From Candidatus Angelobacter sp. (GTDB lineage: Bacteria; Acidobacteriota; Terriglobia; Terriglobales; Acidobacteriaceae): a DNA stretch of 64,000 nt. Where the stretch lies: NCBI GenBank assembly GCA_035710845.1, contig DASTCT010000086.1, positions 3,067 through 67,066 of the forward strand, written 5' to 3'. The stretch's first letter is position 1; every line of letters begins with the position of its first letter. The notes under the pieces were generated by a model. That model worked only from the letters and a program-made list of their open reading frames with translations, had not been told where the DNA came from and did no database searches. A program made the position numbers and the translations under genes. Positions 13,757 through 58,510 of the stretch are shown here, in pieces.

Positions 13757-13813
13757 GCCGCAAGTTTATCAAAACTGAATCAGGCGGAGCATCTTGCCGC
13801 AAAAAACCTGATT

Positions 13814-13834
13814 TAAAAAAGGCGAGGGTCGCCT
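13814..13834 (-). terminator. Rho-independent terminator after the 13859-14050 gene
   Basis: aggcga-ggg-tcgcct hairpin followed by TTTTTT on the minus strand. Confidence 0.6.
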
Positions 13835-21585: not shown

Positions 21586-21646
21586 ATTATTTGGATGCCG
21601 GTCACAACTTCAATGAACGCGTCGATTTACGACAAGCGGGCGTGAA

Positions 21647-21955
21647 GCGATTTGGAGCGAAGTGACAGAATCAACTCCTATGCTATATAGCAGCGAGCCC
21701 GACCTGCTCGGCGAGACCGGGGTCCCCAGCCGCGCCGATTTGCGCGAGCGGGAAGTGGCGAGCTGCTTGCATCAGGAGCAGAAAGCTCTCACCACGATCA
21801 TTCTTCTTAAGCGGTTTGGAGCGAAGCGATAGAACCATCTCCTATGCTATATAGCAGCGAGCCCGACTTGCGTGGCGAGCTGCTTGCACCAGGAGCAGAA
21901 AACTTTCGCCACGACCATTCTTCGTAAGCGGTTTGGAGCGCAGCGACAGAATTAT
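21647..21955. repeat. Tandem repeat, 2.3 copies (units 164, 117 and a partial 28 bp), each full unit containing the palindrome TGCTATATAGCA
   Basis: GCG(A/G)TTTGGAGCGAAG(T/C)GA(C/T)AGAA...CCTATGCTATATAGCAGCGAGCCCGAC at 21647 and 21811, partial copy at 21928. Unit 1 carries a 47-bp REP-like insertion. Confidence 0.85.
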
Positions 21956-37009: not shown

Positions 37010-37043
37010 TCTCCTGTTGCATCATCTCATATTGCTGTGACTA

Positions 37044-37223
37044 TCATTCCAACTCAGCGCTGATCGTATATTCGCCGGCCGAATTGTCCCAATTGATTTG
37101 CAAGACATTCGGCTTGCAGCAAACCTGGCAGTCTTCCACGTAGCTTTGGCGTGAGCCCGCAGAAGAATCCACATGGGTCTCATTCCATTCACCGCAACCA
37201 GCACACTGGAAACCGGAAAGCAT
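37044..37223 (-). CDS. CPXCG-motif cysteine-rich small protein (59 aa)
   Basis: Hand translation: MLSGFQCAGCGEWNETHVDSSAGSRQSYVEDCQVCCKPNVLQINWDNSAGEYTISAELE. The YVEDCQVCC core is diagnostic. Below the ORF-track size cutoff; replaces the tracked 37022-37204 frame. Confidence 0.8.
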   Translation of the reverse strand: MLSGFQCAGCGEWNETHVDSSAGSRQSYVEDCQVCCKPNVLQINWDNSAGEYTISAELE

Positions 37224-37341
37224 GACTAATTATCGTAAAACAAAAACAGCGGCCAGCATTCAAGCTGACCGCTGATTACATCTGCCTACCATCTTTGTTA
37301 TCTGCTTGATCTGTGCAGGATCGCTTGTGCAGAGAACCTAC

Positions 37342-38070
37342 CTAGCTATGTGCTCCTGCAGCAACCCCTGCGGCTTCCATCGCGATCTCTTCAGTTGCGG
37401 TTGCGGCAAAGTAACGGCGATAGGAATATGACACTCCCAACATCACCAGCAGCAGCGCCACAAGAACCTGCCATCCGATATCGGATCCTAACGTCAAAGC
37501 CACGCCGGCAACTCCGGCACTTGCCACCAGGTAGACATAAGACAATTGGAACATGTCTACCCATGTCCGAACCAAACTGACTTTTTCCGTGAGCGAAATC
37601 ACCAGCGCCATGGTGACTGTGTTCACCAGGAAATAAACTGCTGCAGCAAACGCCAGCCGCAAAGCCTGTGATGCAATCCGCGACTCTATCATGGGCGACA
37701 CATAGATGAGCCGCGCTACAGCAACTGTCATCGCAATGGCGAAACAGTTAAATGCAAGCTGCAGCAGATTTAATTTTTGCCTTCTCCGCGGCAGGCATTG
37801 GACCAGGGTGCTGACAAAGCCTACGACCATTGCTTCGGCCGTCCCCAGCAGCGCAGCAGCCAGCAGAAAGAAGGGCAGATTTACTGACATGGTTCCGGTC
37901 AACCCAGGCAGCTTTACTTTAGGCCGCGCTGCCACAGTCGCCAGTACCAGGATCGCAATAAAGCGCGCCATTGCCACTGAGTGGACGTTGAGTACAGCGT
38001 TTCCCATGAGCAGGAAACCCGAAACGATAATCAACGCCACAAATATTCGCGCTGATAATGACTTCGGCAT
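37342..38070 (-). CDS. Stand-alone polytopic membrane module paralogous to the N-terminus of the HD-GYP/GGDEF protein
   Basis: Aligns with the 44301-46748 product: KVKLPGLTGTMSVNLPF..LVQCL vs KVDLPEITGTISVNFLF..LVQCL; AVYFLVNTVTMALVISLTEK vs AVYFLFNTLPVATIISLTEN; YSYRRYF vs RSYRLYL. Start lies 2 nt after the S8 gene stop. Confidence 0.7.
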   Translation of the reverse strand: MPKSLSARIFVALIIVSGFLLMGNAVLNVHSVAMARFIAILVLATVAARPKVKLPGLTGTMSVNLPFFLLAAALLGTAEAMVVGFVSTLVQCLPRRRQKLNLLQLAFNCFAIAMTVAVARLIYVSPMIESRIASQALRLAFAAAVYFLVNTVTMALVISLTEKVSLVRTWVDMFQLSYVYLVASAGVAGVALTLGSDIGWQVLVALLLVMLGVSYSYRRYFAATATEEIAMEAAGVAAGAHS

Positions 38071-38072
38071 GC

Positions 38073-39827
38073 TTAGTCTTCTCCGTCTTCCCCGTCGCTC
38101 AGGGCGTTGATGCCATCCGAGCCCCAGGTAATCGAATTGCACCAGATAATGCTGTTTCCGGTGATGCCGGTCTGTCCCCAGACGATTGAGTTACCCCAAA
38201 CAATGGAGTCTGAGATCACCGCGTTTCCGCCCCACACAATAGAGTTACCCCAAACAATGGAGCTACCCCAGGTGATGCTGTTTCCCCAGGTGATTGATTG
38301 GCTGTTCTGCAGCGTAGCCGTTCCGGTAGCCGAATTGAACTTAACAATGGGTGAAGGCGCTCCGCCATTTACCACGTCAGTGCTTTTCAGCGCAGCGTCA
38401 ACATCCAGATATCCGGCGCCGATGGTAAATACGTCATATTGTGATAAATAACCATATCCCTTGGTGTCATATCCCCAGCTGTTGACGGGATATCCCTTCC
38501 ACGCGGTCTTCATCATTCGCGCTTTAATGGTGTCAGGCGTAAGCGTTGGATCTTTTTGGACCATCAGCGCTGCCGCACCGGCAACGATGGGTGTTGCCAT
38601 GCTTGTGCCGCTAAGTCGGAGATATTTCCCGCTAGCTCCTGTGGTGCAATTATTCAAAACGCAGGTTGTGATGGGCAGAATATTCAGATTCAGCAATGAG
38701 GAAAACAGCGTGCTGCCCGGTGAAGACAGTGAAACGATGCGATTGCCGGGCGCAACCAGGTCAGGCTTAGCCACGTGATCGAGCAGCGTTGGGCCTTTGG
38801 AGCTATAGCTGGCCACAGTGTCATCAAGACGGGTGGGAGTGCCATTGGTTTTGGTAGCGCCCACCGTAATCACATTGGGATCATTACCCGGCGCATTAAT
38901 GGTGGCATATCCTTGCGTCCCGTAAGAATTATCGCGTCCGGCGTTGCCGGCGGCCACAACTACCACGATCCCGGAGTTCCACGCGGCTTCCACAGCCTGG
39001 CATACAGGATCAAGAGCGTAAGACTCAAAAATCGGCCGGCCCAGCGAGAGATTGATGACGCGAATGTTGTAGGTGTTCTTCAACTGGATCGCGCGCTGAA
39101 TGGCCGCGATTACCTGGCTATCCGTCCCCATACCGTTAGCATCAAGCACGCGCAGGTTAATGATGTTGGCATTAGAAGCGACGCCAATATATTGCACAGG
39201 ATAGCCTCTCTGTGAATCGTGGCCGTTCCCTGCCAGAATTCCAGCTACATGCGTGCCATGCCCATACGCGTCGTTTGTGCTGGTATCGCCGGGAATAAAG
39301 CTTTCGCTATAAACAATTCGTGAGCCGGTGCCATTCGCATTCTGCAGGTCGTCATGGTTAAAGACGCCGCTATCGATGATCGCAATGCCAACTCCGGTGC
39401 CGTCCAGACCATATTGCTGGCGGGCAACATCATCCATGACCGCAGGAATATCGTCATCAGACGCAACTTTGTTCGGGCGGTCCGGGCTTACATAGACAAC
39501 GTCAGGATGGTTCTCCAGCCACGCAAGCACTTTGACGGGAATGCGATAAGCCAGAGCATTAATGCGGTCCAGAGAGAACTTCATCCGCCCGCCGCGCGCC
39601 GCTAAATCGGCAAAATGCTGCGCTTTGGGAGTCTGATTGAACTGAATGATTACATTCACCGTTCCGTCAGGATTGACTGGAAAATTAGACAAATCGGCGG
39701 CAAGCTTTCCATGTCCGCGTGCGTGGGCCGCCGCGGGAACCACCGCAAGGACCAACGCCAGCGCAAGAAGATGGAAGAGCCACTTCAGTTTGTGTCGTGT
39801 TGTTAAATCTTGTTTGTCCGATATCAT
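38073..39827 (-). CDS. Secreted subtilisin-like serine protease (S8) with C-terminal hexapeptide-repeat tail
   Basis: Catalytic triad contexts AIIDSGV, HGTHVAG and GTSMATP. Signal peptide. Inhibitor_I9-like propeptide. Confidence 0.9.
   Translation of the reverse strand: MISDKQDLTTRHKLKWLFHLLALALVLAVVPAAAHARGHGKLAADLSNFPVNPDGTVNVIIQFNQTPKAQHFADLAARGGRMKFSLDRINALAYRIPVKVLAWLENHPDVVYVSPDRPNKVASDDDIPAVMDDVARQQYGLDGTGVGIAIIDSGVFNHDDLQNANGTGSRIVYSESFIPGDTSTNDAYGHGTHVAGILAGNGHDSQRGYPVQYIGVASNANIINLRVLDANGMGTDSQVIAAIQRAIQLKNTYNIRVINLSLGRPIFESYALDPVCQAVEAAWNSGIVVVVAAGNAGRDNSYGTQGYATINAPGNDPNVITVGATKTNGTPTRLDDTVASYSSKGPTLLDHVAKPDLVAPGNRIVSLSSPGSTLFSSLLNLNILPITTCVLNNCTTGASGKYLRLSGTSMATPIVAGAAALMVQKDPTLTPDTIKARMMKTAWKGYPVNSWGYDTKGYGYLSQYDVFTIGAGYLDVDAALKSTDVVNGGAPSPIVKFNSATGTATLQNSQSITWGNSITWGSSIVWGNSIVWGGNAVISDSIVWGNSIVWGQTGITGNSIIWCNSITWGSDGINALSDGEDGED
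38121..38297 (-). repeat. About 10 tandem 18-bp coding repeats (SI[TV]WG[NS])
   Basis: SITWGN SITWGS SIVWGN SIVWGG NAVISD SIVWGN SIVWGQ TGITGN SIIWCN SITWG. Confidence 0.9.
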
Positions 39828-39935
39828 TTAGAACCCCGGAAGTTACTTTCAAACTTTTACTCACAGCCGTTTGCTTCTTATGAACCCCAAACCGCTGACC
39901 TGAAAGACATTGGTCGAACCTCCGCTGCCTTTTAG

Positions 39936-39951
39936 TGCAATCCTGAAACCA
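39936..39951 (-). promoter_or_regulatory. Candidate sigma-54 (-24/-12) promoter for the S8/7TM operon
   Basis: Minus strand reads TGGTTTCAGGATTGCA. GG and TTGCA sit at consensus spacing (TGGCAC-N5-TTGCA). Confidence 0.45.
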
Positions 39952-39965
39952 AAGCAGCCGAAATG

Positions 39966-39978
39966 TAAGTTATTGATT
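39966..39978 (-). promoter_or_regulatory. IHF-like site
   Basis: Minus strand reads AATCAATAACTTA, matching WATCAANNNNTTR. Lies between the repeat cluster and the -24/-12 element. Confidence 0.35.
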
Positions 39979-40013
39979 TTGCTATGCTTATATCATGCAA
40001 GGTCGGTCCCGGA

Positions 40014-40116
40014 TGTGACAGGGATGTCAGCCAGAGTGACAGCAAAACTAGAGCAGTTTTAGCGTAACATGTTGCAAATAAAAGGCTTATTCATTATTGC
40101 GACAGGTGTGACAGCC
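40014..40116. promoter_or_regulatory. Cluster of TGTGACA-type repeats (candidate enhancer/UAS)
   Basis: tgtgacaggg (40014), gatgtcagcc (40023), agtgacagc (40035), gcgacagg (40099), tgtgacagcc (40107). Confidence 0.4.
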
Positions 40117-40217
40117 CAGATGAGGCAAATTGATTTCTCGTGTGCTTCATAAGCCTCTTAAGGATCCAAGATTAAGCACAAGAAAATAAGAGAGATAGAT
40201 GGGAGTTGGATCGCAGG

Positions 40218-41024
40218 TTACAAGTGGAGTGCTTCTTCAATTTCAACCGGACTTGGGATCGAGGGCAAAGCTGCAATCAGCTTTTGCGTAAATTCATGCT
40301 GTGGGCTAAAGAAGATGGCTTGAGGCTGGTTGCACTCAACAATTGCGCCATTGTGGATAAGAGCAATACGGTGGCATAGCCCATACGCCGAGAGCAGGTC
40401 GTGGGAGATGAAAAGCAGGCTCATCCCCAGCTTGCGGTTTAAGTCAGCAAACAGTGCCAGGATCTCTGCCTGTGTAACTGCATCAAGAGCGCTTGTCGGC
40501 TCGTCTGCAATCAATAATGCGGGCCGGTGCAAGATGGCCATGGCTATCAATACGCGCTGCGCCTGCCCCACACTGATCTCAGAAGGATAGCGGCGGAGAA
40601 ACTCTTCTGTTGCCGGCAAGCTTGTATCCATCAAGGCGCGAAAGATCGCTTCTTCTTTGTGCTGCTTGCTGCCGTTGCCATGTAGCTTCCACGCTTCTTC
40701 CAATTGCGTGCTTAACCGCAACGCTGGATTCAGCGATGACATGGGGCTTTGAGGCACAAAAGCGATTTCCTTGCCCCGCAAGCTGCGCCACTCGCGTTCT
40801 TTAAGAGTCAGCAGTTCGCGCCCGTTCCAGCGAATCGAGCCACGCGCCTTGCCGCCTTTCAGGTTCAGCAATCCAAGGATCGCCAACGCCAGCGAGCTTT
40901 TTCCGCAGCCGCTGTGCCCTACCAGACCCAGCACCTCTCCGGCTTGCAACTCAAGGCGCAAGTCGTCCAGCACGGGCGGCTTGTCCTTGTAGCTGATCGT
41001 CAATTGGAGCGAGAGCAGGTCCAT
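40218..41024 (-). CDS. ABC transporter ATP-binding protein (peptide/nickel type)
   Basis: Walker A GHSGCGKSS, signature ISVGQAQRV, Walker B LLIADEPTSALD. Confidence 0.9.
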   Translation of the reverse strand: MDLLSLQLTISYKDKPPVLDDLRLELQAGEVLGLVGHSGCGKSSLALAILGLLNLKGGKARGSIRWNGRELLTLKEREWRSLRGKEIAFVPQSPMSSLNPALRLSTQLEEAWKLHGNGSKQHKEEAIFRALMDTSLPATEEFLRRYPSEISVGQAQRVLIAMAILHRPALLIADEPTSALDAVTQAEILALFADLNRKLGMSLLFISHDLLSAYGLCHRIALIHNGAIVECNQPQAIFFSPQHEFTQKLIAALPSIPSPVEIEEALHL

Positions 41025-41029
41025 AAATT

Positions 41030-42637
41030 CTAGTGCGCCTTTGCCAGCGCCAATGTCTCCACGTTCCAGAACGTTTGCGGGCGAAATACGCTTGGCTCGC
41101 TGTTCTTTACTTCAGGCGAGATAGCTACCAGCGCGTCTTTGTTGATCAGATAGATGAACGGCTCCTGGTCCCACGCAATCTGCTGGACGCGGTCCCAATA
41201 TTGTTTGCGCTTATGCTCGTCGCCAGATGAAGCCTGGGCTTTCATCAGCTTGTCGATCTCGGCTTCCCATGCTGTTGCAGGCGATTTCTGCCGCGGATTC
41301 CACTGGTGGTTATCCGCCGAGCTGAGCCACACCGCCATTTGCGCATTGGGGTCCAGATCAACATTCTGGAAGCCCAGCAAACAAGCCTCATAGTTAAAGC
41401 TTTGCGTCATCCGCTCCAGCAATGAATTGAAATCAAGCGTGACCACATTCACCTTGATCCCGATTTTCTTGAGGTCTTCCTGGATCATGGTGGCCATGCT
41501 TTCACGCGAGCGATTGCCTGCATTGGTCACGATGGAAAATTCCACAGCGTTATCGCTCTTATCGCGCAGCGTGCCATCTTGCAGCCGGAAACCATCCTGC
41601 TGCAGCCGATGGAGAGCGCTGGCGGTATCGTAAGGATGCGGTTTGAGATTGCTGTTAAACCAGAACTTGTTGCTGGGCGAGACAACGCCAATCGCCGGGA
41701 CGGCGTGGCCGTGATAAACAATCCGCGCCAGGTCCGCCCGATTGATGGCTTCAGAGATCGCCCGACGGAAATTAGTGGAAGTAAACCACGCTAGCTTATA
41801 TGCCGGAATCGGCGCGCTAGGCACTTGGTTGAACCAGAGTTGCTCCGTATCAGTGGAAGCTCCGGCATCGCGAACGGAAGCGCTATCGCTGGAGAGCTTC
41901 TCAAAGATTGCTGGTGAAACAGTGTTGATCAGTTGAACTTCACCACGCTTATAACGCATGGCCTCGATTTCAGGGTTTTGCTCAATTTCCAGCCGGACTG
42001 AGTCCAGATACGGCAACTGCTTCCCTGTCGAGTCTTTTTTCCAATAGTAAGGATTGCGCTTCAGCAGAATATAGGAGCCGGCCTTACGCTCAGCCACATA
42101 GAACGGTCCTAATGCGGCCATTTCCTTTTGCGGCGATTTTGCAGATAGGATGGCGACTGTATCAAACAGGTCCACCAGGTTCGCTACCGGTGCGGGAAAA
42201 CTGATTTCCACCACGCTGGGCGAAATCACTCGCGTCTCTACCTTGCCTTCACCAGATCGGAATGCATCACCGGTGCTGGAATGCAGCGCTGGATCCATCA
42301 ACTGTGACATCGTGTAAGCTACGTCCGCAGCAGAAAACGGTGTGCCATCAGAATATTTCAGGCCTTCGCGTAGCTTAAAGCGAATGCGCTTGCCGCCTTC
42401 AGAAACCTTCCATTCGCTGGCTAATTCCGGCTGCGGCTTCAGCGTGATTCGGTTCACACGCACCAGCACGCCGCCGGTCAGATAACGGATCGTCTCAGAA
42501 GCATCGTCTTCCACCAGCAGCGGATTATATGTTTTAGGTTCAGCGCGTAGACAGAAACGCAGTTCTCCCCCAGTTTGGGCCAGCAGCGTAGTGCAACCCA
42601 GCAGCAACATCGCAGAGAGCAAATGCAGACGCCTCAT
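41030..42637 (-). CDS. ABC substrate-binding protein, family 5 (oligo/dipeptide-type), lipoprotein
   Basis: Lipobox LLLGC. About 535 aa with family-5 SBP layout (NPLL..DAS, YTMSQLMDP..). Confidence 0.88.
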   Translation of the reverse strand: MRRLHLLSAMLLLGCTTLLAQTGGELRFCLRAEPKTYNPLLVEDDASETIRYLTGGVLVRVNRITLKPQPELASEWKVSEGGKRIRFKLREGLKYSDGTPFSAADVAYTMSQLMDPALHSSTGDAFRSGEGKVETRVISPSVVEISFPAPVANLVDLFDTVAILSAKSPQKEMAALGPFYVAERKAGSYILLKRNPYYWKKDSTGKQLPYLDSVRLEIEQNPEIEAMRYKRGEVQLINTVSPAIFEKLSSDSASVRDAGASTDTEQLWFNQVPSAPIPAYKLAWFTSTNFRRAISEAINRADLARIVYHGHAVPAIGVVSPSNKFWFNSNLKPHPYDTASALHRLQQDGFRLQDGTLRDKSDNAVEFSIVTNAGNRSRESMATMIQEDLKKIGIKVNVVTLDFNSLLERMTQSFNYEACLLGFQNVDLDPNAQMAVWLSSADNHQWNPRQKSPATAWEAEIDKLMKAQASSGDEHKRKQYWDRVQQIAWDQEPFIYLINKDALVAISPEVKNSEPSVFRPQTFWNVETLALAKAH

Positions 42638-43440
42638 ACGCGGACCTCCTGTTTGTTAAGCAGTACCTGGAAGGAGCTGATTACCACTATAAGTACCGCA
42701 AAAGGCAACAATCGCCAAGGTTCCGGACGTAACGTAATCGCGTCCTGAAGTTCACGTAAAAGGCTGCCCAGCGAGGGCAATGGTTCTGACACCCCAAGGC
42801 CCAAAGCGCCCAGATTGGCTTCGGCAATAATGAAAACGGGAATCGAGATCCAGAACTGGGCCAACAATGCGCCGCGAAGGTTGGGCAGTAGGTGCAGACG
42901 AATCAATTTAAAGCCGGAAAAACCTGCGGCTCGCGCCATCCATACGAATTCTGATTTCATCAGATCTTTGGCGCCGGAACAGATGATCCGCGCGGAAGCC
43001 GCCCATCCCAGCAAGCCAAGGAGAATAAAAGTAACCATGACGGAAGCCTGGGGCGAAATATTCAGCGGGAGTACCGCTCGCACTGTAATCAGGAGAAACA
43101 GCCAGGGCACGGAGAGAAAGAAATCAATCAGCAGCTTGCAGCAGCGTTCAATCCAGCCGCCACAATATCCGGCAATGCCGCCTACCAAGCCTGCCAGAAT
43201 CGTTGTAAAGAATGCCGCTAAAGGGGCCAGCGTCAAGGAAACGCGCATTCCGAAAAGCAGTCTTGCCCAGCGATCGCGGCCCAAATCATCTGTCCCCAAC
43301 GGATGGTGCACAGAAGGGCCGGCCTGCGGCAGGTCGCGAAACTGCTGTTCATATCCTGCAGGCGCAAGGTAGTTGGCGAACAGCACAACGAATGCCGTTA
43401 CCAGCAGCACTGCAATCGCTATGAAGCGCACGGTTTTCAT
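42634..43440 (-). CDS. ABC permease (DppC/OppC-like)
   Basis: N-terminal HPLGTDDLGRD motif and EAA-type loop. 4-nt overlaps with both neighbours. Confidence 0.9.
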   Translation of the reverse strand: MKTVRFIAIAVLLVTAFVVLFANYLAPAGYEQQFRDLPQAGPSVHHPLGTDDLGRDRWARLLFGMRVSLTLAPLAAFFTTILAGLVGGIAGYCGGWIERCCKLLIDFFLSVPWLFLLITVRAVLPLNISPQASVMVTFILLGLLGWAASARIICSGAKDLMKSEFVWMARAAGFSGFKLIRLHLLPNLRGALLAQFWISIPVFIIAEANLGALGLGVSEPLPSLGSLLRELQDAITLRPEPWRLLPFAVLIVVISSFQVLLNKQEVRV

Positions 43441-44300
43441 GCCGCACTCCGGGTGAAGCCGCGTTGAGCCCCATCAGAGATCAGGGTGGCGCAAACCGTC
43501 ACAAAAGTCACAATCATGGTGAGGTTCACCAGTAGAGGCAGGTCGCGTGCCTCGGCGGCTTGCCAAGCAAGCTGCCCAATGCCAGCAACGTCGCTGATAA
43601 CCTCAATCGGCAGCAGCACGCCAATGCTAATGCTGATAGAAACGCCGACCAACGCAATCAACTGAGGCAAGGCAATTGGCGCAACGTGCCAGGCTAAAAC
43701 GCGCAGGGGACCAGCGCCTTTGGCCCGTGCCGTGAGCACATGTGGCATTTCCGCGCTCTGCTGAAGAAGGTTTTCTGTATAGCGATAAATCTTAGGGAAA
43801 ACCAGCAAGGCAGCCGCGAATGCTGGTGGCAGTCGTAATAAAAGAAAGACCAGCGCAAGCGCAGCTGCAGGAGTGGAGATGAATGTTCCACTCAGGCCAT
43901 TGGCCAGGAAACTAAATGCGCGCCAGCGCAAAACCTGTGTGGCGATGGCCAATGCAAGCCCCAGCAGCCACCCGATCGCCAGCGCAAACGCCAAATTTGG
44001 AAGTGTTACCGGCAGCCGTTCACGCAAAAGTTCTTTTACCGGCTGATTGAGAGAACTTGAAGTGCCAAAATCGCCCTTAGCTAGCGAGATGAGGTATTGC
44101 ACATAGAACCGTGGAATATTCGCATCGGCTAAACGGGCCTGCCGAATGGCCTGGATACTCTGGGCAGAAAGGCTGGGATTAAGTTCCTGATCGTCAGAGG
44201 TAAAACCGGGAGCAATGCGTATGAGCATGGCGCCCGCAAAGCTCGCCATGAGCATAAGCGCCGCCAGCCGAAGCACAGCGCCGCTGAGAAAGCGCAGCAT
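43437..44300 (-). CDS. ABC permease (DppB/OppB-like)
   Basis: Six TM helices. TARAKG motif of the binding-protein-dependent permease loop. Confidence 0.9.
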   Translation of the reverse strand: MLRFLSGAVLRLAALMLMASFAGAMLIRIAPGFTSDDQELNPSLSAQSIQAIRQARLADANIPRFYVQYLISLAKGDFGTSSSLNQPVKELLRERLPVTLPNLAFALAIGWLLGLALAIATQVLRWRAFSFLANGLSGTFISTPAAALALVFLLLRLPPAFAAALLVFPKIYRYTENLLQQSAEMPHVLTARAKGAGPLRVLAWHVAPIALPQLIALVGVSISISIGVLLPIEVISDVAGIGQLAWQAAEARDLPLLVNLTMIVTFVTVCATLISDGAQRGFTRSAA

Positions 44301-46748
44301 TTATCCTGCCACCGCGTCACGGACGCCGTTGGATTTACGCGGTTCCGGCAGCGAATTGAAGCCTTTCAGTATCCGGTGATGTTCCTGCTTCTGTATGTAC
44401 ATGCGGCGATCTGCTTCTGCCAGCAGCTTTTCCGCATCTACCCCATCATCCGGATAAATGGCACATCCAACGCTCAGGCTAAGCCATTCCACGCCGCAAA
44501 TCTCACGTCCAGCGTTGCCGGCCAATTCGCTCAGGCAGATTCCGCGCGCTTCTGCCGCAGCGGAGCTTAGACCGGGCGCAACAATCACAAATTCATCGCC
44601 ACCCATGCGGGCGGTGTAATCGTACTCACGGCAGGATCCCTGCAAGGTCTCGGCAAAATGGCGCAAAATCCGGTTACCTTCAAGGTGGCCAAAGCGATCA
44701 TTGATCTTCTTGAAACCATCAAGGTCACATACCATCACTGTTAATGAACTTTGCAGGCGTTTGCAGCGAGCCAATTCACGGTCCAAATGCAGGAACAACG
44801 AGCGTGCATTCGGAAGCTCTGTGAGGTAATCGGTTGTAGCCGAGCTTTCGGCTTCCTGGAAGGCCAGCGCGTTCTCCACTGAAAGCGCGACTTTTGAACT
44901 AATGGCCAGCAGAATACGCAGATGGTCAGCCGTATATGCGTCCTGATCGCTGTGGTAGAGCGTTAGCACGCCAACCACGCCTTGCAAACCTTCCAATGGA
45001 ACAGAGATGGCAGACCGCAACGCGCTGAAGCGATTAGGATCGGGCTCGTAACCATGCTCCAGTGCCGGGTTCCCATTCAGCATGGGCTTGCGATTCTGGG
45101 CTACCCATCCGGACAAGCCTTCGCCCACCGGGATACGCAGAGCCGCAAACAGACGGAAGTTATCGCCACTCACAAACTCCGGCAGTAATTCGGGGCCCCG
45201 CACAATGTAAGTTGCAATCGCGTCATACGGAACCAGCCGTTTTAAGCGTCCGCTGAGCACAGAGAGCGTGTCACTTAAGCTTAAAGAATTGCCCAGGTCC
45301 TGCGTTAACTCAAAAAGGGTCTGCGCTTCCTGGCGGGCTGCGGCAATCGACGAAAGGAACGCCGCCTGATTATTGGGCTCGACGCTCTTGGCCGCTTCAA
45401 ATCCGCTGGCGGGCGCTTTGCCGGGCGCAACTTTCAGATCGGTAGAAAGCCTATGGCGATCCGGCACCAGCGACTGCATGTGCACAATTTCTTCCAGCTC
45501 CCTATAGTTTGTCTGCAGCATCGCGACCACTTTGGGGTCATAAGCCTTGCCGGCCTGATCAGCCACCCACTGCATGGCATCATCCAGCGGCAGCGCCTTG
45601 CGATATTGGCGATCTGTGGCTAAGGCATCAAGGCAATCGACGGCAGAAAGGATCCTGGCGCCAATGGGGATTTCTTCGCCCTTCAGCCCGGCTGGGTATC
45701 CCGCACCATCCCACCGCTCGTGGTGGCAGCGGACGATCGGCACCACTGGATAGGGAAAATGCACCCGCTCCAGGATTTCTGCACCCACAATGGGGTGGAT
45801 CTTCATTTTCTCGAACTCTTCCGGCGTCAACCGTCCGGGCTTGGAGAGAATATGCTCCGGCACAGCCAGCTTACCAATGTCATGGAGCAGGGCTGCGGCG
45901 CGCAGAGCTTCAATTTCATCCGGAGAAAGATTAAGCTTCTTCGCCAATTCCACAGCGTAAACGCGTACGCGCTCAAGGTGATCGTGCGTGGTCTGGTCCT
46001 TGGCTTCAATGGCCAGAGCAAGCGCCTCAATCGTGCGCATGTGCAAAGCCGCCATCTCTGCCACATGGTTCTTCTCATTCGCCAGCTTGCCCAGATAAAG
46101 CCGGTAAGACCGGTAGATGATGAACATTGCAGGCAGTGCCAGTAATGTCGGTTGCCATCCCACTTTCTGGTTGACCCACCCAAACATCGCGGCAATCGCG
46201 CCACCGGCCAGATAATAAGGCAGCGACCAGAAATAGCAATCCGTCCATATCTTTCGCAGGTTCTTATTTTCAGTGAGCGAAATAATGGTAGCCACCGGCA
46301 GCGTATTAAAGAGAAAATAAACAGCGGCTGAAAGCATCAGCAACAACGCGCTGTTCGAATGCAAATAGGCGTTCAGCGGCCCATGATATGTGAAGTAAGC
46401 TGCCCAAATGGCAACCGCCGCGCTGGAGATGTTAAAGAATACCTGTTCCGGTCGCGGCAAGCGGCGCCCTGTAAGCAGGCACTGCACCAGGATAGCGGAA
46501 CAGCCCAGCACCAACGTCCCGCTGAACGTCAACTCGGCAATTCCAATGAGAATAAATAAGAAGTTGACTGAAATTGTCCCGGTAATCTCCGGCAGATCAA
46601 CTTTCAGTCGCGAGGCCAGCAGGGCAGTAAGCACATAAGCAGCAAACTTGGACGCATTGTCGATCCTCCACACCAGTCCGCCATAGACGGCGGTCACAAG
46701 ACCGGCCATGCAGACGATGAAAAGGAATATACGGGCCTGCTTCGACAT
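44301..46748 (-). CDS. Multidomain c-di-GMP protein: 7TM module, HD-GYP phosphodiesterase, GAF, GGDEF cyclase with I-site
   Basis: HD..LHDIGK..HHERWDGAGYP (HD-GYP). GAF-like GEGLSGWVAQNRKP. DLDGFKKINDRFGH and RMGGDEFVIV. REYD lies 5 residues before GGDEF (RxxD I-site). ATG at 46748 preceded by GGAGG. Stop abuts the permease start. Confidence 0.9.
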   Translation of the reverse strand: MSKQARIFLFIVCMAGLVTAVYGGLVWRIDNASKFAAYVLTALLASRLKVDLPEITGTISVNFLFILIGIAELTFSGTLVLGCSAILVQCLLTGRRLPRPEQVFFNISSAAVAIWAAYFTYHGPLNAYLHSNSALLLMLSAAVYFLFNTLPVATIISLTENKNLRKIWTDCYFWSLPYYLAGGAIAAMFGWVNQKVGWQPTLLALPAMFIIYRSYRLYLGKLANEKNHVAEMAALHMRTIEALALAIEAKDQTTHDHLERVRVYAVELAKKLNLSPDEIEALRAAALLHDIGKLAVPEHILSKPGRLTPEEFEKMKIHPIVGAEILERVHFPYPVVPIVRCHHERWDGAGYPAGLKGEEIPIGARILSAVDCLDALATDRQYRKALPLDDAMQWVADQAGKAYDPKVVAMLQTNYRELEEIVHMQSLVPDRHRLSTDLKVAPGKAPASGFEAAKSVEPNNQAAFLSSIAAARQEAQTLFELTQDLGNSLSLSDTLSVLSGRLKRLVPYDAIATYIVRGPELLPEFVSGDNFRLFAALRIPVGEGLSGWVAQNRKPMLNGNPALEHGYEPDPNRFSALRSAISVPLEGLQGVVGVLTLYHSDQDAYTADHLRILLAISSKVALSVENALAFQEAESSATTDYLTELPNARSLFLHLDRELARCKRLQSSLTVMVCDLDGFKKINDRFGHLEGNRILRHFAETLQGSCREYDYTARMGGDEFVIVAPGLSSAAAEARGICLSELAGNAGREICGVEWLSLSVGCAIYPDDGVDAEKLLAEADRRMYIQKQEHHRILKGFNSLPEPRKSNGVRDAVAG

Positions 46749-46779
46749 ACGCTGGTAAATGCCTCCGCCAGACTTACAT

Positions 46780-46795
46780 GGCAACTACCTGGCCA
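46780..46795 (-). promoter_or_regulatory. Candidate sigma-54 (-24/-12) promoter for the HD-GYP/GGDEF-ABC operon
   Basis: Minus strand reads TGGCCAGGTAGTTGCC, with GG and GC at consensus spacing. Lies 32-47 nt upstream of the ATG at 46748. Confidence 0.45.
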
Positions 46796-46831
46796 AACAG
46801 GTTCGAAAGTTTGGTTTTGCAACTGCCATTG

Positions 46832-46844
46832 AATCAATAATTTC
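46832..46844 (+). promoter_or_regulatory. IHF-like site (near match)
   Basis: AATCAATAATTTC. Shares the AATCAATAA core with the 39966-39978 site. Confidence 0.3.
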
Positions 46845-46897
46845 CATCTGCGGTCGGCGAGAGCTTGGGTAATACCACCTATCTGGCTGCGACACAT

Positions 46898-46938
46898 TTG
46901 TCACAGGGTGCCTTTATGGCTCATGTCAAATTGTCACA
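46898..46938. promoter_or_regulatory. Two TTGTCACA repeats 33 bp apart (candidate enhancer/UAS)
   Basis: tttgtcacaggg at 46897 and attgtcacaagg at 46930. The TGTNACA core is palindromic and matches the 40.0-40.1 kb cluster. Confidence 0.4.
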
Positions 46939-47062
46939 AGGATCCGACGAAGGAAGGCTGGCAATCATTAGTATTCAAAAAGCCCAAGCCTGATGGCGAC
47001 GTGATCCTTAACAAGGAAACGTTGCTTTGAAAAACTGAAGTATTGAGAACTTTAGTAATCCA

Positions 47063-48460
47063 ATGCGGGTGCTTACCGATTGCCCGGACATGCCCATTTG
47101 CTCCATCATGGCCAGTAACGGGTTGTACTTTAGGGTGCTTAAGGAGAAAGTTTTTTTGTCGACGCTCGTTCACAACTCATGTGACCTTAGCGGTCAGGTT
47201 GTCCGCAGTGATGCCCTGAAGCGGGTCATGAAGCTGGTTGAGCAAGTGGCGTGTCATCCTGCAGCAGTGCTGATTGTAGGTGAAACCGGCACTGGCAAGG
47301 AGATGATTGCACGCTCCATCCACGCCCGTTCCCTGCGCTGCAACAAGCCCTGGGTTGACGTAAATTGCGCCGCGATTCCTGAACATTTGGTGGAAAGCGA
47401 GCTTTTTGGTTATGAAAAAGGCGCGTTCAGCGGAGCAGATACCCAGAAGGCCGGCTATTTTGAAATGGCTGATGGCGGCACGTTGTTCCTGGACGAAATT
47501 GGTGATCTTGACCCACGTGTGCAAGTAAAACTGCTGCGTGTGCTCGATGGCGCTCCTTATTTTCGCCTGGGTGGAAGCAAAAAAGTTGAAGTGGACGTCC
47601 GCGTAGTGGCAGCCACAAACCAAAATCTGGAAGAGTTGGTTCGCTCCGGGCGGTTCCGCAATGATCTTTATCACCGGCTGGCGGAATTCAAGCTTGAAAT
47701 CCCGCCGCTGCGAGAAAGACCGGAAGATTTGCTGGCCATCGCCGAGCAAATCCTGCATCAGCATTATCCTGACTCGCGCTATTCCCAGGACGCAGTGACT
47801 GCATTGCTTACTTATGAATGGCCAGGCAACGTGCGCGAGTTACGCAATGCCATATTTCGCGCCGTGATGTTGGCAAAGAACGCGTCTGTTGAGATTACCG
47901 CGGCTGATTTGAAATTGACCCAGGTGATCCAGCCGACTAATGGCAAAGCTCCTCTCAGCCAAGACCTGGACCAGTTGGAGCGACAGATTGTATTTGACAC
48001 CTTGGAACGCTGCGGGGGCAACCAGGGCAAGGCAGCGCAAGCGCTGGGCATTTCCCGGCGAACACTCCTGCGCAAACTCAAGACCTATCGCGAAGCCGGG
48101 CCGGATGCTGGTGGTGAGTGGTGCGTAGAGCGCTACTATCGCAAACAAATCAACACGCCCATCCGCCTGAAAATGGCTGACGAATGGATGGACGCTACGC
48201 TGCTGAATATCAGCCTCGGTGGAGCAGCGATCTCCATCCACAAGCTCCTTGGCCAAGGCTCGCTGGTAACAATCAGCCTCAGCATTCCTGAAAGCGATGC
48301 CAAAGCGGAGATCACCGGACGCATTGCCTGGGCGAACAAAGAAGGCCATCACGGAATCCAGTTTGGCGATCTTTCTTCTGAAGTCAGCGCTCAATTGCAA
48401 CGCTGGTTTAAGGCAGAGATGAAAAAAGACGGTTGGGACGAAGAGCTGGAAGCGGAATAA
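47063..48460 (+). CDS. Sigma-54-dependent enhancer-binding protein lacking an N-terminal sensor domain, with a C-terminal PilZ-like domain
   Basis: AAA+ Walker A GETGTGKE, GAFSGA loop (GAFTGA variant), Walker B LFLDEIGD, Fis-type HTH AAQALGISRRTLLRKLK. Then about 100 aa with ERYYRKQ...(22 aa)...NISLGG (PilZ DxSxxG-type motif). Likely true start is the TTG at 47156 (AAGGAG 9 nt upstream). Confidence 0.85.
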   Translation: MRVLTDCPDMPICSIMASNGLYFRVLKEKVFLSTLVHNSCDLSGQVVRSDALKRVMKLVEQVACHPAAVLIVGETGTGKEMIARSIHARSLRCNKPWVDVNCAAIPEHLVESELFGYEKGAFSGADTQKAGYFEMADGGTLFLDEIGDLDPRVQVKLLRVLDGAPYFRLGGSKKVEVDVRVVAATNQNLEELVRSGRFRNDLYHRLAEFKLEIPPLRERPEDLLAIAEQILHQHYPDSRYSQDAVTALLTYEWPGNVRELRNAIFRAVMLAKNASVEITAADLKLTQVIQPTNGKAPLSQDLDQLERQIVFDTLERCGGNQGKAAQALGISRRTLLRKLKTYREAGPDAGGEWCVERYYRKQINTPIRLKMADEWMDATLLNISLGGAAISIHKLLGQGSLVTISLSIPESDAKAEITGRIAWANKEGHHGIQFGDLSSEVSAQLQRWFKAEMKKDGWDEELEAE

Positions 48461-49486: not shown

Positions 49487-51052
49487 CTAGACTCCTGTCC
49501 CCTTAAACACCGCGGGAATCGTGCGCAAAAGGATTTTAAAATCCAGGCCTAGACTCCAATTTTCTATGTACTCCAGGTCGAGAGCAATATAGTTGTCGAA
49601 CGAGGGATCTTGGCGGCAGGTGATCTGCCACAGACCGGTAATGCCAGGGACAACATCCAAACGCCTGAGATGGTCAAGGCGATATTGCTTGAACTCGCTG
49701 GGCAAAGGTGGCCGTGGTCCCACCAGGCTCATATCGCCCTTAAGTACGTTGATTAGCTGAGGTACTTCGTCCAGGCTGAACTTGCGCAGCACCCGGCCAA
49801 CTCGCGTAATCCGCGGATCGTTGGCGACTTTAAAGAGTACAGAGTTGCGCTCGTTGCTCTCTTCCAGATTCGTTTTAAGTCCGTCAGCCCCCTTGACCAT
49901 GGTTCTAAACTTATAGAAGGTGAAGAGCCTGCCCTTCTTTCCTACCCGGTGTGAGCGATAAAACACCGGCCCTCTTGACTCCAGTTTGAGCAGTATTGCG
50001 ATAAGAAGGAATACAGGCGACAAGACCAGCAGCAATAGCCCGGCCATTATCACGTCGCAGATTCGCTTTAGCATCCAACCAGTGGCCGGAATCGGCTCGC
50101 GATGCAGCACGCGTACAGGCAAGTGCGCCAGGTATTCAACGGGAGCATTCACAGCAAAGCCGTCATACAGTTCCGGTACCACCTTTACATCCAAACGCAG
50201 CCCGCGAGCCTGCAATGCTACTTTCTTCACCAGTTCGCGCTGGGATGGAATCGTAACCACCACTTCATCGATAAAGTATTGCCGGGCAATTTCAGGGAGA
50301 TCGGCAAACGATCCCAACACCTGAGAATCGTCCTTGCGATGGTCATCCAGAAAACCAATCACGCGATATCCCGGATTCTGCTTAAGGTGTTGCGCCAGTT
50401 CCATTCCTACAGCTCCTGCACCAACAATGAGCACATTCGTCATCTGCTCATCCCGTACGCGAGCGCGTCTTACATAGATGCGGCGCAGCACGTGCCGTCC
50501 GGCAAACGCCACAATCGTTACTCCGGCAGTGAAGAAAAGCGTGGAACGTGTGTTTTTACCTGTATCTGCAATGTAAAAAAACGCTGCCATAGCCATGGCT
50601 GCCGTTAAAGCAGCCTTCATTGCGGCCAATGCAGTATCAATAATTGGAAGCTGGCTCTGGTACAAGCGGTAATGATTCGCGCGCGCCAGAACCAGGCACG
50701 CATAGATAGCCACTACCGCCCATTGATGAAAGAACATTTCGTGGATATTGATCCACGCGGCGATAGTGGGCACTCCGCTATGGCTGCGGAATATATATGC
50801 ACCACCGATAACGATGATCAGGAGGAAATCCAGTACCGCCGCAAGACCAGAAGATTGTGCTCTTCTGCTTTGGGCCACAAGCGCCAAGCGTGCTTTCTCT
50901 GCCTTGCGACGTGCAGGTAAAGCTCTTGCCAAGGCCCCATCTGCCGGCCGCAATGGCGCGGTTCTTTCTGTAGCTTCTTCCTTACTGCTAACTTTCAAGA
51001 CTGCCCCCTGCCATAGGACTTGGCCGTGGGAACCCCTCTTGCCGAAATTCAC
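49487..51052 (-). CDS. Exopolysaccharide priming polyprenyl-phosphate sugar phosphotransferase (WbaP/EpsB-like)
   Basis: N-terminal TM helices, Rossmann-like VLIVGAGAVG, C-terminal bacterial sugar transferase motifs (FKFRTM, DEVPQLINVLKGDMSLVGPRP). GTG start uncertain. Confidence 0.85.
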   Translation of the reverse strand: MNFGKRGSHGQVLWQGAVLKVSSKEEATERTAPLRPADGALARALPARRKAEKARLALVAQSRRAQSSGLAAVLDFLLIIVIGGAYIFRSHSGVPTIAAWINIHEMFFHQWAVVAIYACLVLARANHYRLYQSQLPIIDTALAAMKAALTAAMAMAAFFYIADTGKNTRSTLFFTAGVTIVAFAGRHVLRRIYVRRARVRDEQMTNVLIVGAGAVGMELAQHLKQNPGYRVIGFLDDHRKDDSQVLGSFADLPEIARQYFIDEVVVTIPSQRELVKKVALQARGLRLDVKVVPELYDGFAVNAPVEYLAHLPVRVLHREPIPATGWMLKRICDVIMAGLLLLVLSPVFLLIAILLKLESRGPVFYRSHRVGKKGRLFTFYKFRTMVKGADGLKTNLEESNERNSVLFKVANDPRITRVGRVLRKFSLDEVPQLINVLKGDMSLVGPRPPLPSEFKQYRLDHLRRLDVVPGITGLWQITCRQDPSFDNYIALDLEYIENWSLGLDFKILLRTIPAVFKGTGV

Positions 51053-51142
51053 ACTTCTTCAGTCCCTACTACTATATAGTGACGCCCCCGCGCCGGGCGT
51101 TTCTTTTCACTCTTCTTTTTCTTACAAATCTGCTAAGGCTGG

Positions 51143-52368
51143 CTACTCAAGCACGTTGCCCTGTTTTGTAACTCCTGTCGCTTTCTCAGTTACAAGGATG
51201 TTGTTCTGTGCGCTATGCCGCACTGTGTTCCTGATGATATGGATTGCGTTTCCCGTATGCACCTTGATGCCGTCGCCGCCGATGGTAAACACTGTATTGT
51301 CTTCCAGCGTAACCTCAGAAAGCGGGCCGCCTTGATCCTTGGCCGGGCTCCAGACAAGTAACCCTACCTGTTCATGCTCCCCCAGATCACCGATAACGGT
51401 ATTGCCGGTCACATGCACGTCTTGCGACGAGCGCGCAGAAATGCCGGTCGCCCCGGAACTTCCGCCAGGTGCGCTGCTCAGCGTCACCTTGTTTCCTTCA
51501 ACCTTAACTTTCTGAGCCCCATCGCCCACTTCAATTGAAGTATCTTTTACCGCGTTGATTGTGTTGCCGGTAATAGTGATGTCGTGTGTATGTTCACCAC
51601 TCGGCGAAGCCCCAAGAACAAAGATTCCATTCGCCTTGGCCACTTTACTGACCTCATTGCCCTGTATCGTAATAAAGCTGACATGCGCAGCCGGAGGCGT
51701 ATTTCCGGCAAGGATGCCCGAGCCATTTCTCACGTCTTCAATATGGTTATTCGCCACCTTGCCGCGAGTGCATCCATCATCCAGAAAAATGCCATGAACC
51801 ACGCTATTGAGAACGGCTACGCGCTCAATCGTAAAATTCGAAACATTCTTCAGATGGATCGTACTTACCTGTCCCGACTCGTTGGCATTATTGCCATCCA
51901 GCGTAAGATCGTGAATTGAAATCCAATTGTTCCCGTTATCTTTGGCATTAACAATGAGATTACTGTTCGCCCCCGGCGCCAACCGCAACACTGTGTTGCT
52001 GCCCTGGCCTGCTAACTCTACTCTGTTTGGAAGGCCCCACGTCTTTGCGACTTCTATCGTCACGTGACCGAGCAACACCCGGACCATTCCATTAGAGCCA
52101 GCAAATGGGTCTGCCTTGACAACCTGATTTCCCGAAATCGAAGTCGCATCACACGTGCCTCCATCGGGAGCAAGCTGCCGGATGCAGGATACAAGCTTTC
52201 GCCGAAGTCTGAGCCAGGCTGGGTCGCTACATTGATTTGCTTTCCTTGCGAGGGACTTGAAGCCTGTTCCACCAAAAGATCTCTGGCAAAGAACCATTGA
52301 CCGCTGGCGCAGAAAACGCCAGCGATCAACAGAGATAACCAGAAACCTTTTTGCAACTTCTTAGTCAT
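51143..52368 (-). CDS. Right-handed parallel beta-helix repeat protein (pectate-lyase fold); apparent 1-nt frameshift near 52198
   Basis: Repeated ..N..I..N.. beta-helix rungs in the 51143-52297 frame. The signal peptide MTKKLQKGFWLSLLIAGVFCASG is in a different frame (52368 downward), which overlaps the upstream gene stop. Confidence 0.65.
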
Positions 52369-56085: not shown

Positions 56086-56087
56086 CG

Positions 56088-56843: not shown

Positions 56844-56913
56844 GTTTTATCCTTTTTGTAATTGTTGACGCGCGAATTTCCGAGCCTTGCAACTTCCATG
56901 AAGCGCAGCCTCG

Positions 56914-58449: not shown

Positions 58450-58510
58450 ACTGAATTAAATCTGAGCTTTCGTTAGCTACCTCGTGTCTCTTTCAAAAGC
58501 ACTTCATCAA

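Follow-up and report, generated by a model that had tools for sequence, protein, structure and literature searches.

A conserved, probably sigma-54-controlled gene cassette of Terriglobia that includes a PilZ-tailed enhancer-binding protein

A Divergent Cassette beside a PilZ-Tailed Activator

The 64,000-nucleotide (64-kb) stretch of "Candidatus Angelobacter" sp. DNA analyzed in this study (GenBank assembly GCA_035710845.1, contig DASTCT010000086.1; hereafter called the window) carries a gene cassette in which a sigma-54 enhancer-binding protein (EBP) ends in a PilZ domain. The EBP gene is divergent from an operon encoding a predicted cyclic di-GMP (c-di-GMP) enzyme and an ATP-binding cassette (ABC) importer. 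A second operon, on the same strand as the first, encodes a small pre-peptide, a secreted S8 subtilase, and a stand-alone MASE9 membrane protein. Each operon is preceded by a -24/-12 element, which we call P1 for the enzyme-ABC operon and P2 for the peptide-S8-MASE9 operon. The cassette is real, conserved, and uncharacterized, and the architecture of its enzyme has already been catalogued.

Comparative evidence makes a sigma-54 regulon driven by the EBP appear well supported. The proposed reading of c-di-GMP through the PilZ tail is plausible, but this step is weakened by a noncanonical ligand-binding motif. As a whole, the model in which the PilZ-tailed EBP drives P1 and P2, with PilZ serving as the c-di-GMP (or enzyme) input and with feedback, stands in our judgment an even chance of being correct.

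In this model, the EBP, which has no N-terminal sensor, would bind sites of the TGTGAC-N6-GTCRCA type and activate two sigma-54 promoters. Expression from P1 would yield a membrane-bound MASE9-HD-GYP-GAF-GGDEF enzyme, whose translation would be coupled to that of an Opp/Nik-type ABC importer. Expression from P2 would yield a 42-residue pre-peptide that resembles a signal peptide and terminates in ASAVWGS, a secreted S8 protease bearing SIxWG repeats, and a membrane protein that consists of MASE9 only. The PilZ tail, which follows directly after the helix-turn-helix (HTH), would most likely set DNA binding or ring assembly of the EBP, either through c-di-GMP or through contact with the enzyme. 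The balance of the enzyme's two activities would be set by its MASE9 domain, for which an intramembrane ligand has been proposed, and by its GAF domain, such that enzyme and EBP would form a feedback loop acting on expression of the enzyme itself.

Gene calls were taken from a mechanical list of open reading frames (ORFs), domains were assigned by a Pfam scan, and names for transporter and protease genes were sought in NCBIfam. Pfam confirmed all the domain calls of an initial annotation of this region, and it identified each gene of the block described there (EBP, enzyme, importer, S8 subtilase, and seven-transmembrane paralogue). Related loci, labeled L001-L010 and L081-L087, were found by homologue search and include metagenome contigs; L081, L083-L085, and L087 are such contigs, reached via the small peptide or via tail fragments.

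The Cassette Is Syntenic in Relatives

Relatives of the EBP at 76% identity or higher fall into more than 120 clusters, all of which carry PF07238 (PilZ). Those with named sources come from "Candidatus Angelobacter" or Sulfotelmatobacter metagenome-assembled genomes, which belong to the Acidobacteriota, class Terriglobia. Full-length, PilZ-bearing relatives occur in seven loci of the species-representative genome set. Searches with the window proteins by tblastn recovered the entire block, with its gene order unchanged, in L001-L005, and a part of it in L007. The order is the MASE9-only gene, the S8 gene, the ATPase, the substrate-binding protein (SBP), two permeases, and the enzyme, followed by the divergent EBP and then an enoyl-CoA hydratase gene. 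L081 and L083-L085 have the same arrangement, as does L087, except that its MASE9-only gene lies beyond the contig end. The neighborhood, whose conservation the initial annotation had proposed as a check, is thus shared by about 10 Terriglobia ("Candidatus Angelobacter") loci that are independent of one another.

A HMMER search of the whole library returned about a dozen clusters at 50% identity that match through the PilZ tail, and the EBP-PilZ architecture is therefore a family rather than a singleton. A homologue search with the HTH and PilZ portions alone returned mostly gene fragments on short contigs, which inform on the diversity of the tail and say little about architecture or taxonomy. 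One cluster representative, P0197 (613 amino acids, 50% cluster), is an EBP-PilZ protein with an extra N-terminal region of ~175 amino acids and a canonical GAFTGA loop; the PilZ tail is thus also found on EBPs that have an N-terminal domain. In L086, a distant EBP-PilZ gene is still divergent from an HD-GYP…GGDEF gene, with the importer replaced by an M13 peptidase. The M13 metallopeptidase and a MacB-type ABC system come after the HD-GYP…GGDEF gene here (L086, 4216-8150), and the genes are fragmented by frameshifts.

An Enhancer-Binding Protein without an N-Terminal Sensor

The EBP is encoded by a plus-strand ORF spanning 47063-48460, in which Pfam detects, in order, Sigma54_activat (PF00158, residues 47-211, 227 bits), AAA_lid_14 (217-284), HTH_8 (302-342), and PilZ (357-449). 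Homologues begin with MSTxVHN, and the equivalent position in the window is a TTG codon at 47156 with AAGGAG just before it. This is the likely start, giving a gene at 47156..48460 (+). From this codon only ~15 residues precede the AAA+ module, which leaves no room for a REC, GAF, or PAS domain, and Pfam finds no N-terminal sensor domain even in the longer ORF. The initial annotation had described an activator lacking such domains, and this description holds.

The AAA+ sigma-54 interaction domain (47201..47695, +) includes an intact Walker A motif (GETGTGKE, 47279-47302) and Walker B motif (LFLDE, 47483-47497). The loop that contacts sigma-54 reads GAFSGA (47420-47437) rather than GAFTGA. GAFSGA is listed among the variants that retain activation, and EBPs of Desulfovibrio whose sigma-54 regulons have been mapped also carry it (PMC4641369). 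By its Walker motifs and its GAFSGA loop, the AAA+ protein has the predicted features of a bacterial EBP. The Fis-type HTH_8 DNA-binding domain (47966..48088, +) was assigned by Pfam, and its profile matches the HTH structures of ZraR, Fis, and NtrC.

A plus-strand block, TTGAGAACTTTAGTAATC, located at approximately 47037-47060 and ~100 nucleotides upstream of the likely EBP start, has several invariant columns in the alignment of the P1 spacer (alignment A1). This block shows no fit to a sigma-70 consensus and could serve as an operator or as the promoter of the EBP gene itself.

Two Probable Sigma-54 Promoters Share Clustered Upstream Sites

Element P1 (TGGCCAGGTAGTTGCC, 46780..46795, -) lies ~32 nucleotides upstream of the enzyme ATG at 46748, and element P2 (TGGTTTCAGGATTGCA, 39936..39951, -) lies 25 nucleotides upstream of the ATG of the small pre-peptide ORF. 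Both TGGCCAGGTAGTTGCC and TGGTTTCAGGATTGCA maintain the GG-N10-GC register and resemble the TGGCAC-N5-TTGCW promoter consensus. As the initial annotation had proposed, there are two -24/-12-like promoters, and in all orthologous loci examined (about 10) their positions are unchanged, while their flanks have diverged. P1 is present even in L008 and L010, whose EBPs have no PilZ domain. In the alignments of the P1 spacer (A1) and of the P2 spacer (A2, six loci), whose mean identities are 58% and 56%, the TTTGGC…TTGCC and TTGG…TGCA columns are invariant. The distance from the -12 element to the first ATG of the second operon, which is that of the peptide, varies only from 23 to 26 nucleotides across loci. 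No sigma-70-like hexamer pair was found on the coding strand of either spacer 5' of the first gene of each operon.

The two promoter regions also share upstream repeats. In the P1 spacer, alignment A1 and a half-site scan revealed a distal site, TGTGACAATTTGACA (46924..46938, -), which in relatives reads TGTGACAnTTTGGCAC. A conserved block of the same alignment is a palindromic, enhancer-like site, TGTGACAAATGTGTCGCA (46888..46905), and this is the sole match in the window to TGTGAC-N6-GTCRCA when at most one mismatch is permitted. Upstream of P2, alignment A2 and the half-site scan identified TGTCACACCTGTCGCA (40098..40113, -; TGTGACRCACCTGTCGCA in relatives), together with the proximal pair TGTCACTCTGGCTGACA and TGTCACA (40014..40042, -), which was also seen in further loci. 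Half-sites of the form TGTCRCA or TGYGACA occur 11 times in the 64 kb. Six of these 11 form two clusters of three, located exactly at the two promoter regions, whereas shuffled sequence yields an expectation of 0.01 for such clusters. TGTNACA-type repeats at both promoters had been noted previously, and they are indeed clustered and conserved in relatives.

A shared core resembling a site for integration host factor (IHF) had also been described for the two promoter regions, and this survives only in part. The IHF-like sequence AATCAATAACTTA (39966..39978, -) upstream of P2 is retained in the six A2 loci as well as in L081 and L082, but it is absent from L083-L085, and it is not conserved 5' of P1 in the alignments examined (A1 and A2).

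Two observations count against the assignment of sigma-54 promoters. A loose -24/-12 pattern has 37 matches in the window compared to ~30 expected, and it is thus not enriched; because this pattern is not above chance, a motif match by itself proves nothing. In addition, no RpoN box indicative of an rpoN gene was found within the 64-kb window. The counts of the loose pattern lend something to the view that the promoter- and enhancer-like motifs are coincidental and that the genes are expressed from unrecognized housekeeping promoters. We consider this view very improbable, given that the elements are held in position in about 10 loci with diverged flanks and that half-site clusters occur at the two promoters only. 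P1 and P2 are very probably both sigma-54 promoters, as judged from their conservation. The adjacent EBP is probably the activator of both, a proposal based on its adjacency, the shared sites, and their co-conservation.

Four further close matches to the -24/-12 consensus occur in the window, at 5008-5023 (-), 19190-19205 (-), 20594-20609 (+), and 54879-54894 (-); examples are TGGCACGCTTTTTGCA and TGGCATTTTGTTTGCT. The match at 54879-54894 falls within a polysaccharide gene cluster described below.

The PilZ Tail Has a Variant Ligand Motif

The initial annotation placed a PilZ-like domain after the Fis-type HTH, and several lines of evidence bear this out. The domain (48131..48409, +) scores 52.8 bits against PF07238, for which the gathering score is 22.5. 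An AlphaFold2 model of the HTH and tail, built with 51 sequences, has a predicted local distance difference test (pLDDT) score of 86 and comprises a six-stranded barrel and a C-terminal helix (strands at 66-139 and helix at 144-160 in model numbering). The top Foldseek matches to the tail model in the Protein Data Bank (PDB) are c-di-GMP-bound PilZ domains of Alg44, BcsA, MapZ, MotI, YcgR, and MrkH, the best being Alg44 (4XRN, E value 1e-6, TM score 0.74). The tail is thus predicted to adopt the canonical PilZ fold, a beta-barrel with a C-terminal helix. It should be noted that a single-sequence phmmer search of the PDB with the tail returned only noise, with calmodulin on top, and that a family profile was required to obtain PilZ matches.

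Canonical PilZ domains contact c-di-GMP through an RxxxR motif and a second motif defined as [D/N]hSxxG (bioRxiv 10.1101/814665). In the window protein, the alignment of tails places these motifs at ERYYRK (48128-48145, +), for which the family consensus is QQRYYR, and at NISLGG (48206-48223, +); positions within the tail are counted on the 465-residue ORF that starts at 47063. Across 51 tails, the N, S, G, and G of NhSxxG and the last arginine of the first motif are invariant. Conservation of the second motif and of the variant first motif argues for a conserved site for a ligand or partner.

A number of findings weigh against direct and obligatory sensing of c-di-GMP by this domain. The family profile aligns QQRYYR opposite RRQYVR of MotI, such that the first motif departs from RxxxR. 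Both canonical arginines are replaced by glutamine, an arginine appears one position later, and the last arginine is retained. Across the 50%-identity clusters the motif becomes Q[QKH]x[YF][YF]R, wherein only the last arginine is conserved. Because the first arginine of RxxxR is missing, standard c-di-GMP binding cannot be assumed. Moreover, the only EBP-PilZ protein encountered in the literature searched, MXAN_2902 of Myxococcus xanthus, is predicted not to bind c-di-GMP (PMC8316039).

Distant EBPs that lack the tail provide another argument of this kind. The proteins of L008 (a group-2 acidobacterium, 56% identity) and L010 (Bryobacteraceae, 52% identity) end right after the HTH, yet their genes are divergent from the same enzyme-ABC operon with its -24/-12 element. 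PilZ is therefore unnecessary for the basic link between EBP and operon. Given that orthologues without PilZ retain this operon, the core of EBP, enzyme, and importer is the older arrangement and the PilZ tail a later addition. In L009, which also encodes a PilZ-less EBP, ~7 kb separates the EBP gene from the enzyme gene, and a search for a -24/-12 element was negative. No TGTCRCA half-sites were present in L008, L009, or L010, and their EBPs probably read another site, so these loci cannot serve to footprint the TGTCRCA-type site. There is also no peptide-S8-MASE9 operon downstream of the ABC genes in L008 or L010. Judging from the loci compared, the second operon makes its appearance in the Angelobacter-type clade together with the PilZ tail and the new DNA motif.

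One explanation that accommodates the variant motif is that the tail does not bind nucleotides and acts as a docking module, in the manner of the PilZ proteins PA2960 and XAC1133, whose partners are FimX-EAL and PilB. The tail would then couple the EBP to a partner, such as the HD-GYP/GGDEF enzyme, and c-di-GMP would be sensed indirectly or not at all. In addition to the loss of both RRxxxR arginines in the family, the variability of the first-arginine position across the 50% clusters, and the prediction for MXAN_2902, this explanation is favored by matches of the tail profile to the nonbinding XC1028/PilZ structures, and by the example of PlpA, which does not bind despite having the motifs. 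However, the invariance of the second motif and of the last arginine fits it less well, as does the usual presence of a basic residue at the first-arginine position or the next one. The best structural matches, furthermore, are ligand-bound canonical PilZ domains with an N-terminal loop rather than the truncated XC1028 type. We view docking as possible but the less probable role. The original proposal of c-di-GMP sensing via the PilZ tail therefore fares unevenly: the fold and the NISLGG motif agree with it, but the first motif, QQRYYR in the family, does not. The prospects that the tail binds c-di-GMP are about evenly balanced.

A Predicted c-di-GMP Enzyme Coupled to an ABC Importer

[quoted passage not shown] The ORF is listed from a TTG codon at 46784 that overlaps the P1 element, and the ATG at 46748 is the likelier start. 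Its HD-GYP portion (HD_5, 134 bits) carries both HDIGK (45870-45884) and HHERWDGAGYP (45693-45725), the latter in agreement with HHExxDGxGYP. The GGDEF active-site motif (44589-44603) is preceded by an RxxD I-site (REYD, 44619-44630) with the spacing REYD-YTARM-GGDEF, which places five residues between them. None of the 12 orthologues inspected has lost the HD-GYP, I-site, or GGDEF motifs (12/12 intact), and we predict that the enzyme can both make and break c-di-GMP. These domains and catalytic motifs agree with the earlier description of a seven-transmembrane (7TM) HD-GYP-GAF-GGDEF protein with an RxxD I-site. The MASE9 (PF20972) assignments are marginal, with scores of 25.9 and 28.1 bits for the two copies compared to a gathering score of 24.3.

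A complete importer was said to abut the stop codon of the enzyme, and this is what the domain searches show. The genes encode permease 1 (OppB/NikB-like, 43437..44300, -), whose start abuts the enzyme stop, permease 2 (OppC/NikC-like, 42634..43440, -; Pfam and NCBIfam), a family-5 SBP (SBP_bac_5, 41030..42637, -), and a single ATPase (NikD/OppD/YejF-like, 40218..41024, -; Pfam and NCBIfam). With its family-5 SBP, two BPD_transp_1 permeases, and one OppD/NikD-like ATPase, the system has the makeup of an Opp/Dpp/Nik (PepT-family) importer. The best named matches of the SBP are NikA and Opp4A, both under the curated cut-offs, and NCBIfam scores for all named equivalogs (NikA, OppA, DppA, and others) are far under cut-off, as exemplified by NikA at 149 versus 393. 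With such scores, a substrate assignment for this importer fails.

A Pre-Peptide Precedes the Secreted Protease

In relatives, a ribosome-binding site and an ORF of 41-43 amino acids lie between P2 and the S8 gene. This ORF, which is the first gene behind P2, was overlooked in the initial annotation. Members of the pre-peptide family have a basic N terminus (MSxRxK), a variable hydrophobic stretch, and a C-terminal ASAVWGS. A profile search gave 250 matches, none of which has a Pfam match or a meaningful name. Among the best 120 of these 250, the ASAVWG core is C-terminal in every case (120/120) and the exact ASAVWGS end is found in 111; in one distant locus the peptide ends in ASAIWGS.

The window itself retains only a remnant of the pre-peptide, MSFRSAVWGS* (39878..39910, -). 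Compared to L001, whose EBP is 93% identical, an in-frame deletion of 99 nucleotides between two TCA codons has removed the hydrophobic segment and left 10 codons, while the other genes of the operon are intact. This deletion may represent a natural nonproducer variant or an assembly artifact.

The second gene encodes a secreted S8 subtilase (38073..39827, -) with a signal peptide, a propeptide, and the predicted catalytic triad D153/H190/S408. The best NCBIfam name, type VII secretion mycosin (TIGR03921), scores 148 bits against a cut-off of 279, and by its D/H/S triad the protein is predicted to be a generic subtilase. At its C-terminal end are eight copies of a hexapeptide repeat, (Q/N/S/D)SI(T/V/I)WG, followed by an acidic tail, ALSDGEDGED (38121..38300, -). 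Repeats and tail have no Pfam match and are conserved in all orthologues. The pre-peptide end, S-A-V-W-G-S, resembles one of these repeat units. A single-sequence AlphaFold2 model of the repeat region has a pLDDT of 47 and is not usable.

The third gene (37342..38070, -) starts two nucleotides after the S8 stop codon and encodes a MASE9-only membrane protein that is 33-38% identical to the N terminus of the enzyme, indicating that the two are paralogous. An S8 subtilase and a stand-alone 7TM paralogue behind a second promoter were part of the original description, which this result upholds. The operon ends at a strong terminator-like hairpin with an 11-bp stem and a T-run (37247..37274, -). 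An M50 protease was considered as a further operon member and rejected, based on the strong terminator that lies between and on extra genes found between in relatives. In L081, a Zn-ribbon gene and a gene for a 255-residue protein (12815-13834) separate the MASE9-only gene from the M50 peptidase gene, and the corresponding spacer in the window is 332 bp (37010-37341).

The cassette was originally interpreted as an extracellular proteolysis and peptide-uptake module. A secreted S8 protease and an Opp/Nik-type importer are in fact encoded, but the interpretation had not taken the pre-peptide and the SIxWG repeats into account. On this nutritional reading, the extracellular protease and the oligopeptide importer that the EBP switches on would serve to obtain nitrogen or carbon, and the c-di-GMP enzyme would be a passenger with a role in adjusting lifestyle. 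Sigma-54 commonly governs nitrogen acquisition. The signal peptide and propeptide of the protease, the Opp/Nik family membership of the importer, and the M13 peptidase that takes the place of the ABC genes beside the distant EBP-PilZ of L086 are all consistent with such a role. However, it leaves unexplained the pre-peptide, the MASE9-only protein, the peptide-like repeats, and the tight translational coupling of a signaling enzyme to the importer, and we consider it doubtful.

The pre-peptide and repeats are no less suggestive of a peptide-processing or signaling module than of nutrition, and the protease operon is more likely to be a peptide-processing or anchoring module than to encode a plain nutritional protease. 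One such arrangement would be an export-process-import loop similar to that of Phr/RRNPPA systems. The known parts of these systems are an exported pre-peptide that carries a short peptide at its C terminus, an extracellular subtilisin-type protease, and family-5 Opp import (PMC11343458). At the level of genes, all three parts are present and syntenic in the cassette. The pre-peptide would be exported and trimmed by the S8 protease to …SAVWGS, whereupon MASE9 would sense the product or the Opp-like importer would retrieve it. The SIxWG repeats of the protease itself may be a further substrate or a docking site. The resulting shift in c-di-GMP output would cause the EBP to autoinduce both operons.

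The composition of the pre-peptide, with its basic N terminus, variable hydrophobic core, and near-invariant C-terminal heptapeptide, agrees with this scheme, as do its position as the first gene after P2, the constant adjacency of the secreted S8 and family-5 SBP importer genes, and the co-occurrence in one clade of the PilZ tail and TGTCRCA sites with the peptide-S8-MASE9 operon, all of which are absent from L008 and L010. Several features disagree. Pfam and locus comparison detected no tetratricopeptide repeat (TPR) protein in the cassette, and the type of receptor used in RRNPPA systems is therefore not adjacent. The heptapeptide is near-invariant across more than 120 clusters, unlike diversifying pheromones, and the importer predates the peptide-protease operon. 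Also, the peptide could be an anchor or subunit of the protease, as its end resembles the S8 repeats; a role as membrane anchor or subunit is equally possible as the Phr/RRNPPA-type reading. Overall, we think it unlikely that the cassette operates as such a loop. The fuller proposal is a self- or cell-cell signaling circuit of a diderm bacterium, in which the sigma-54-autoinduced pre-peptide is trimmed by S8 to …SAVWGS and sensed by MASE9 or reimported, and the enzyme then changes c-di-GMP that the noncanonical PilZ tail reads; this seems to us quite improbable. If a peptide loop does exist, then the strain represented by the window, whose pre-peptide is without an export segment, would be a natural nonproducer.

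Genes and RNAs Surrounding the Cassette

An exopolysaccharide-type cluster (49487-63570, -) is located beyond the enoyl-CoA hydratase gene; its members include a Bac_transf priming transferase, a Beta_helix protein, an Acyl_transf_3 protein, a Polysacc_synt_3 flippase, and a Wzy_C-like protein. Synteny extends to the first gene of this cluster in L001 and L005, but not in L081 or L083. An Rfam search of the window produced no c-di-GMP riboswitch; the only family found was the transfer-messenger RNA (tmRNA) gene at 12102-12474 (+; RF00023, 189 bits). An intergenic region at 21645-21956 contains imperfect direct repeats with units of 85 and 71 nucleotides, which are 88-89% identical and spaced 117 and 164 nucleotides apart.

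Comparison with Known Systems

To our knowledge, c-di-GMP control of sigma-54 activators occurs solely via the AAA+ domain, as in FleQ-type proteins, and we know of PilZ-based control of transcription solely from MrkH-type proteins. An EBP that lacks a sensor, carries PilZ behind its HTH, and is encoded beside a messenger enzyme would provide a compact system for learning how PilZ can gate an AAA+ activator. Its promoters and enhancer sites are conserved and mappable, and it bears on whether a PilZ domain with QQRxxR still binds c-di-GMP. The cassette is abundant in soil Terriglobia, wherein signaling is almost unstudied. Its pre-peptide and repeat-bearing protease are unannotated, and may represent peptide signaling or protease anchoring in a Gram-negative phylum.

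The initial annotation cited no characterized EBP-PilZ fusion. No characterized protein of this kind was found in the literature searched, but the one mention that turned up, of MXAN_2902, shows that the architecture had been noticed before. Like the window EBP, MXAN_2902 is an enhancer-binding protein with a PilZ domain, and this domain too has been judged noncanonical. It differs in belonging to another phylum. No developmental or motility phenotype was seen for MXAN_2902 under the conditions of that study (PMC8316039).

FleQ and FlrA of Pseudomonas and Vibrio resemble the window EBP as AAA+ sigma-54 activators with a Fis-type HTH; their output is tied to c-di-GMP and controls surface and lifestyle genes. 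In sensing of the FleQ type, the AAA+ contact residues are LFRS, an R/N that follows Walker A, and ExxxR. FleQ binds c-di-GMP on its AAA+ domain, has an N-terminal FleQ/REC-like domain, and acts with the partner FleN (PMC7288161). In contrast, the window EBP is without the N-terminal FleQ domain, and the PilZ domain after its HTH is the candidate sensor. MrkH of Klebsiella, which is among the structural matches to the tail, also uses PilZ as the ligand-sensing part of a transcription activator. However, MrkH has a PilZN-PilZ architecture without AAA+ or HTH_8, functions with sigma-70, and carries a canonical RxxxR. EBPs of the PspF and HrpR/S type share with the window EBP a combination of AAA+ and HTH without an N-terminal sensor. 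They are controlled in trans by PspA and HrpV, whereas the candidate control element of the window EBP is the C-terminal PilZ domain fused in cis.

The Phr-Rap and other RRNPPA systems are found in Bacillota. The cassette differs from these in its diderm host, in having no TPR receptor, and in the near-invariant core of its peptide. In addition, a c-di-GMP enzyme and a sigma-54 EBP would carry the output here, and the protease bears peptide-like repeats.

Finally, the catalogue of Galperin and Chou lists this MASE9-HD-GYP-GAF-GGDEF architecture and proposes that MASE9 binds intramembrane ligands. That catalogue has no genomic or regulatory context for the architecture, whereas the gene described here is placed behind a predicted sigma-54 promoter, in an operon with an ABC importer, and is accompanied by a stand-alone MASE9 paralogue.

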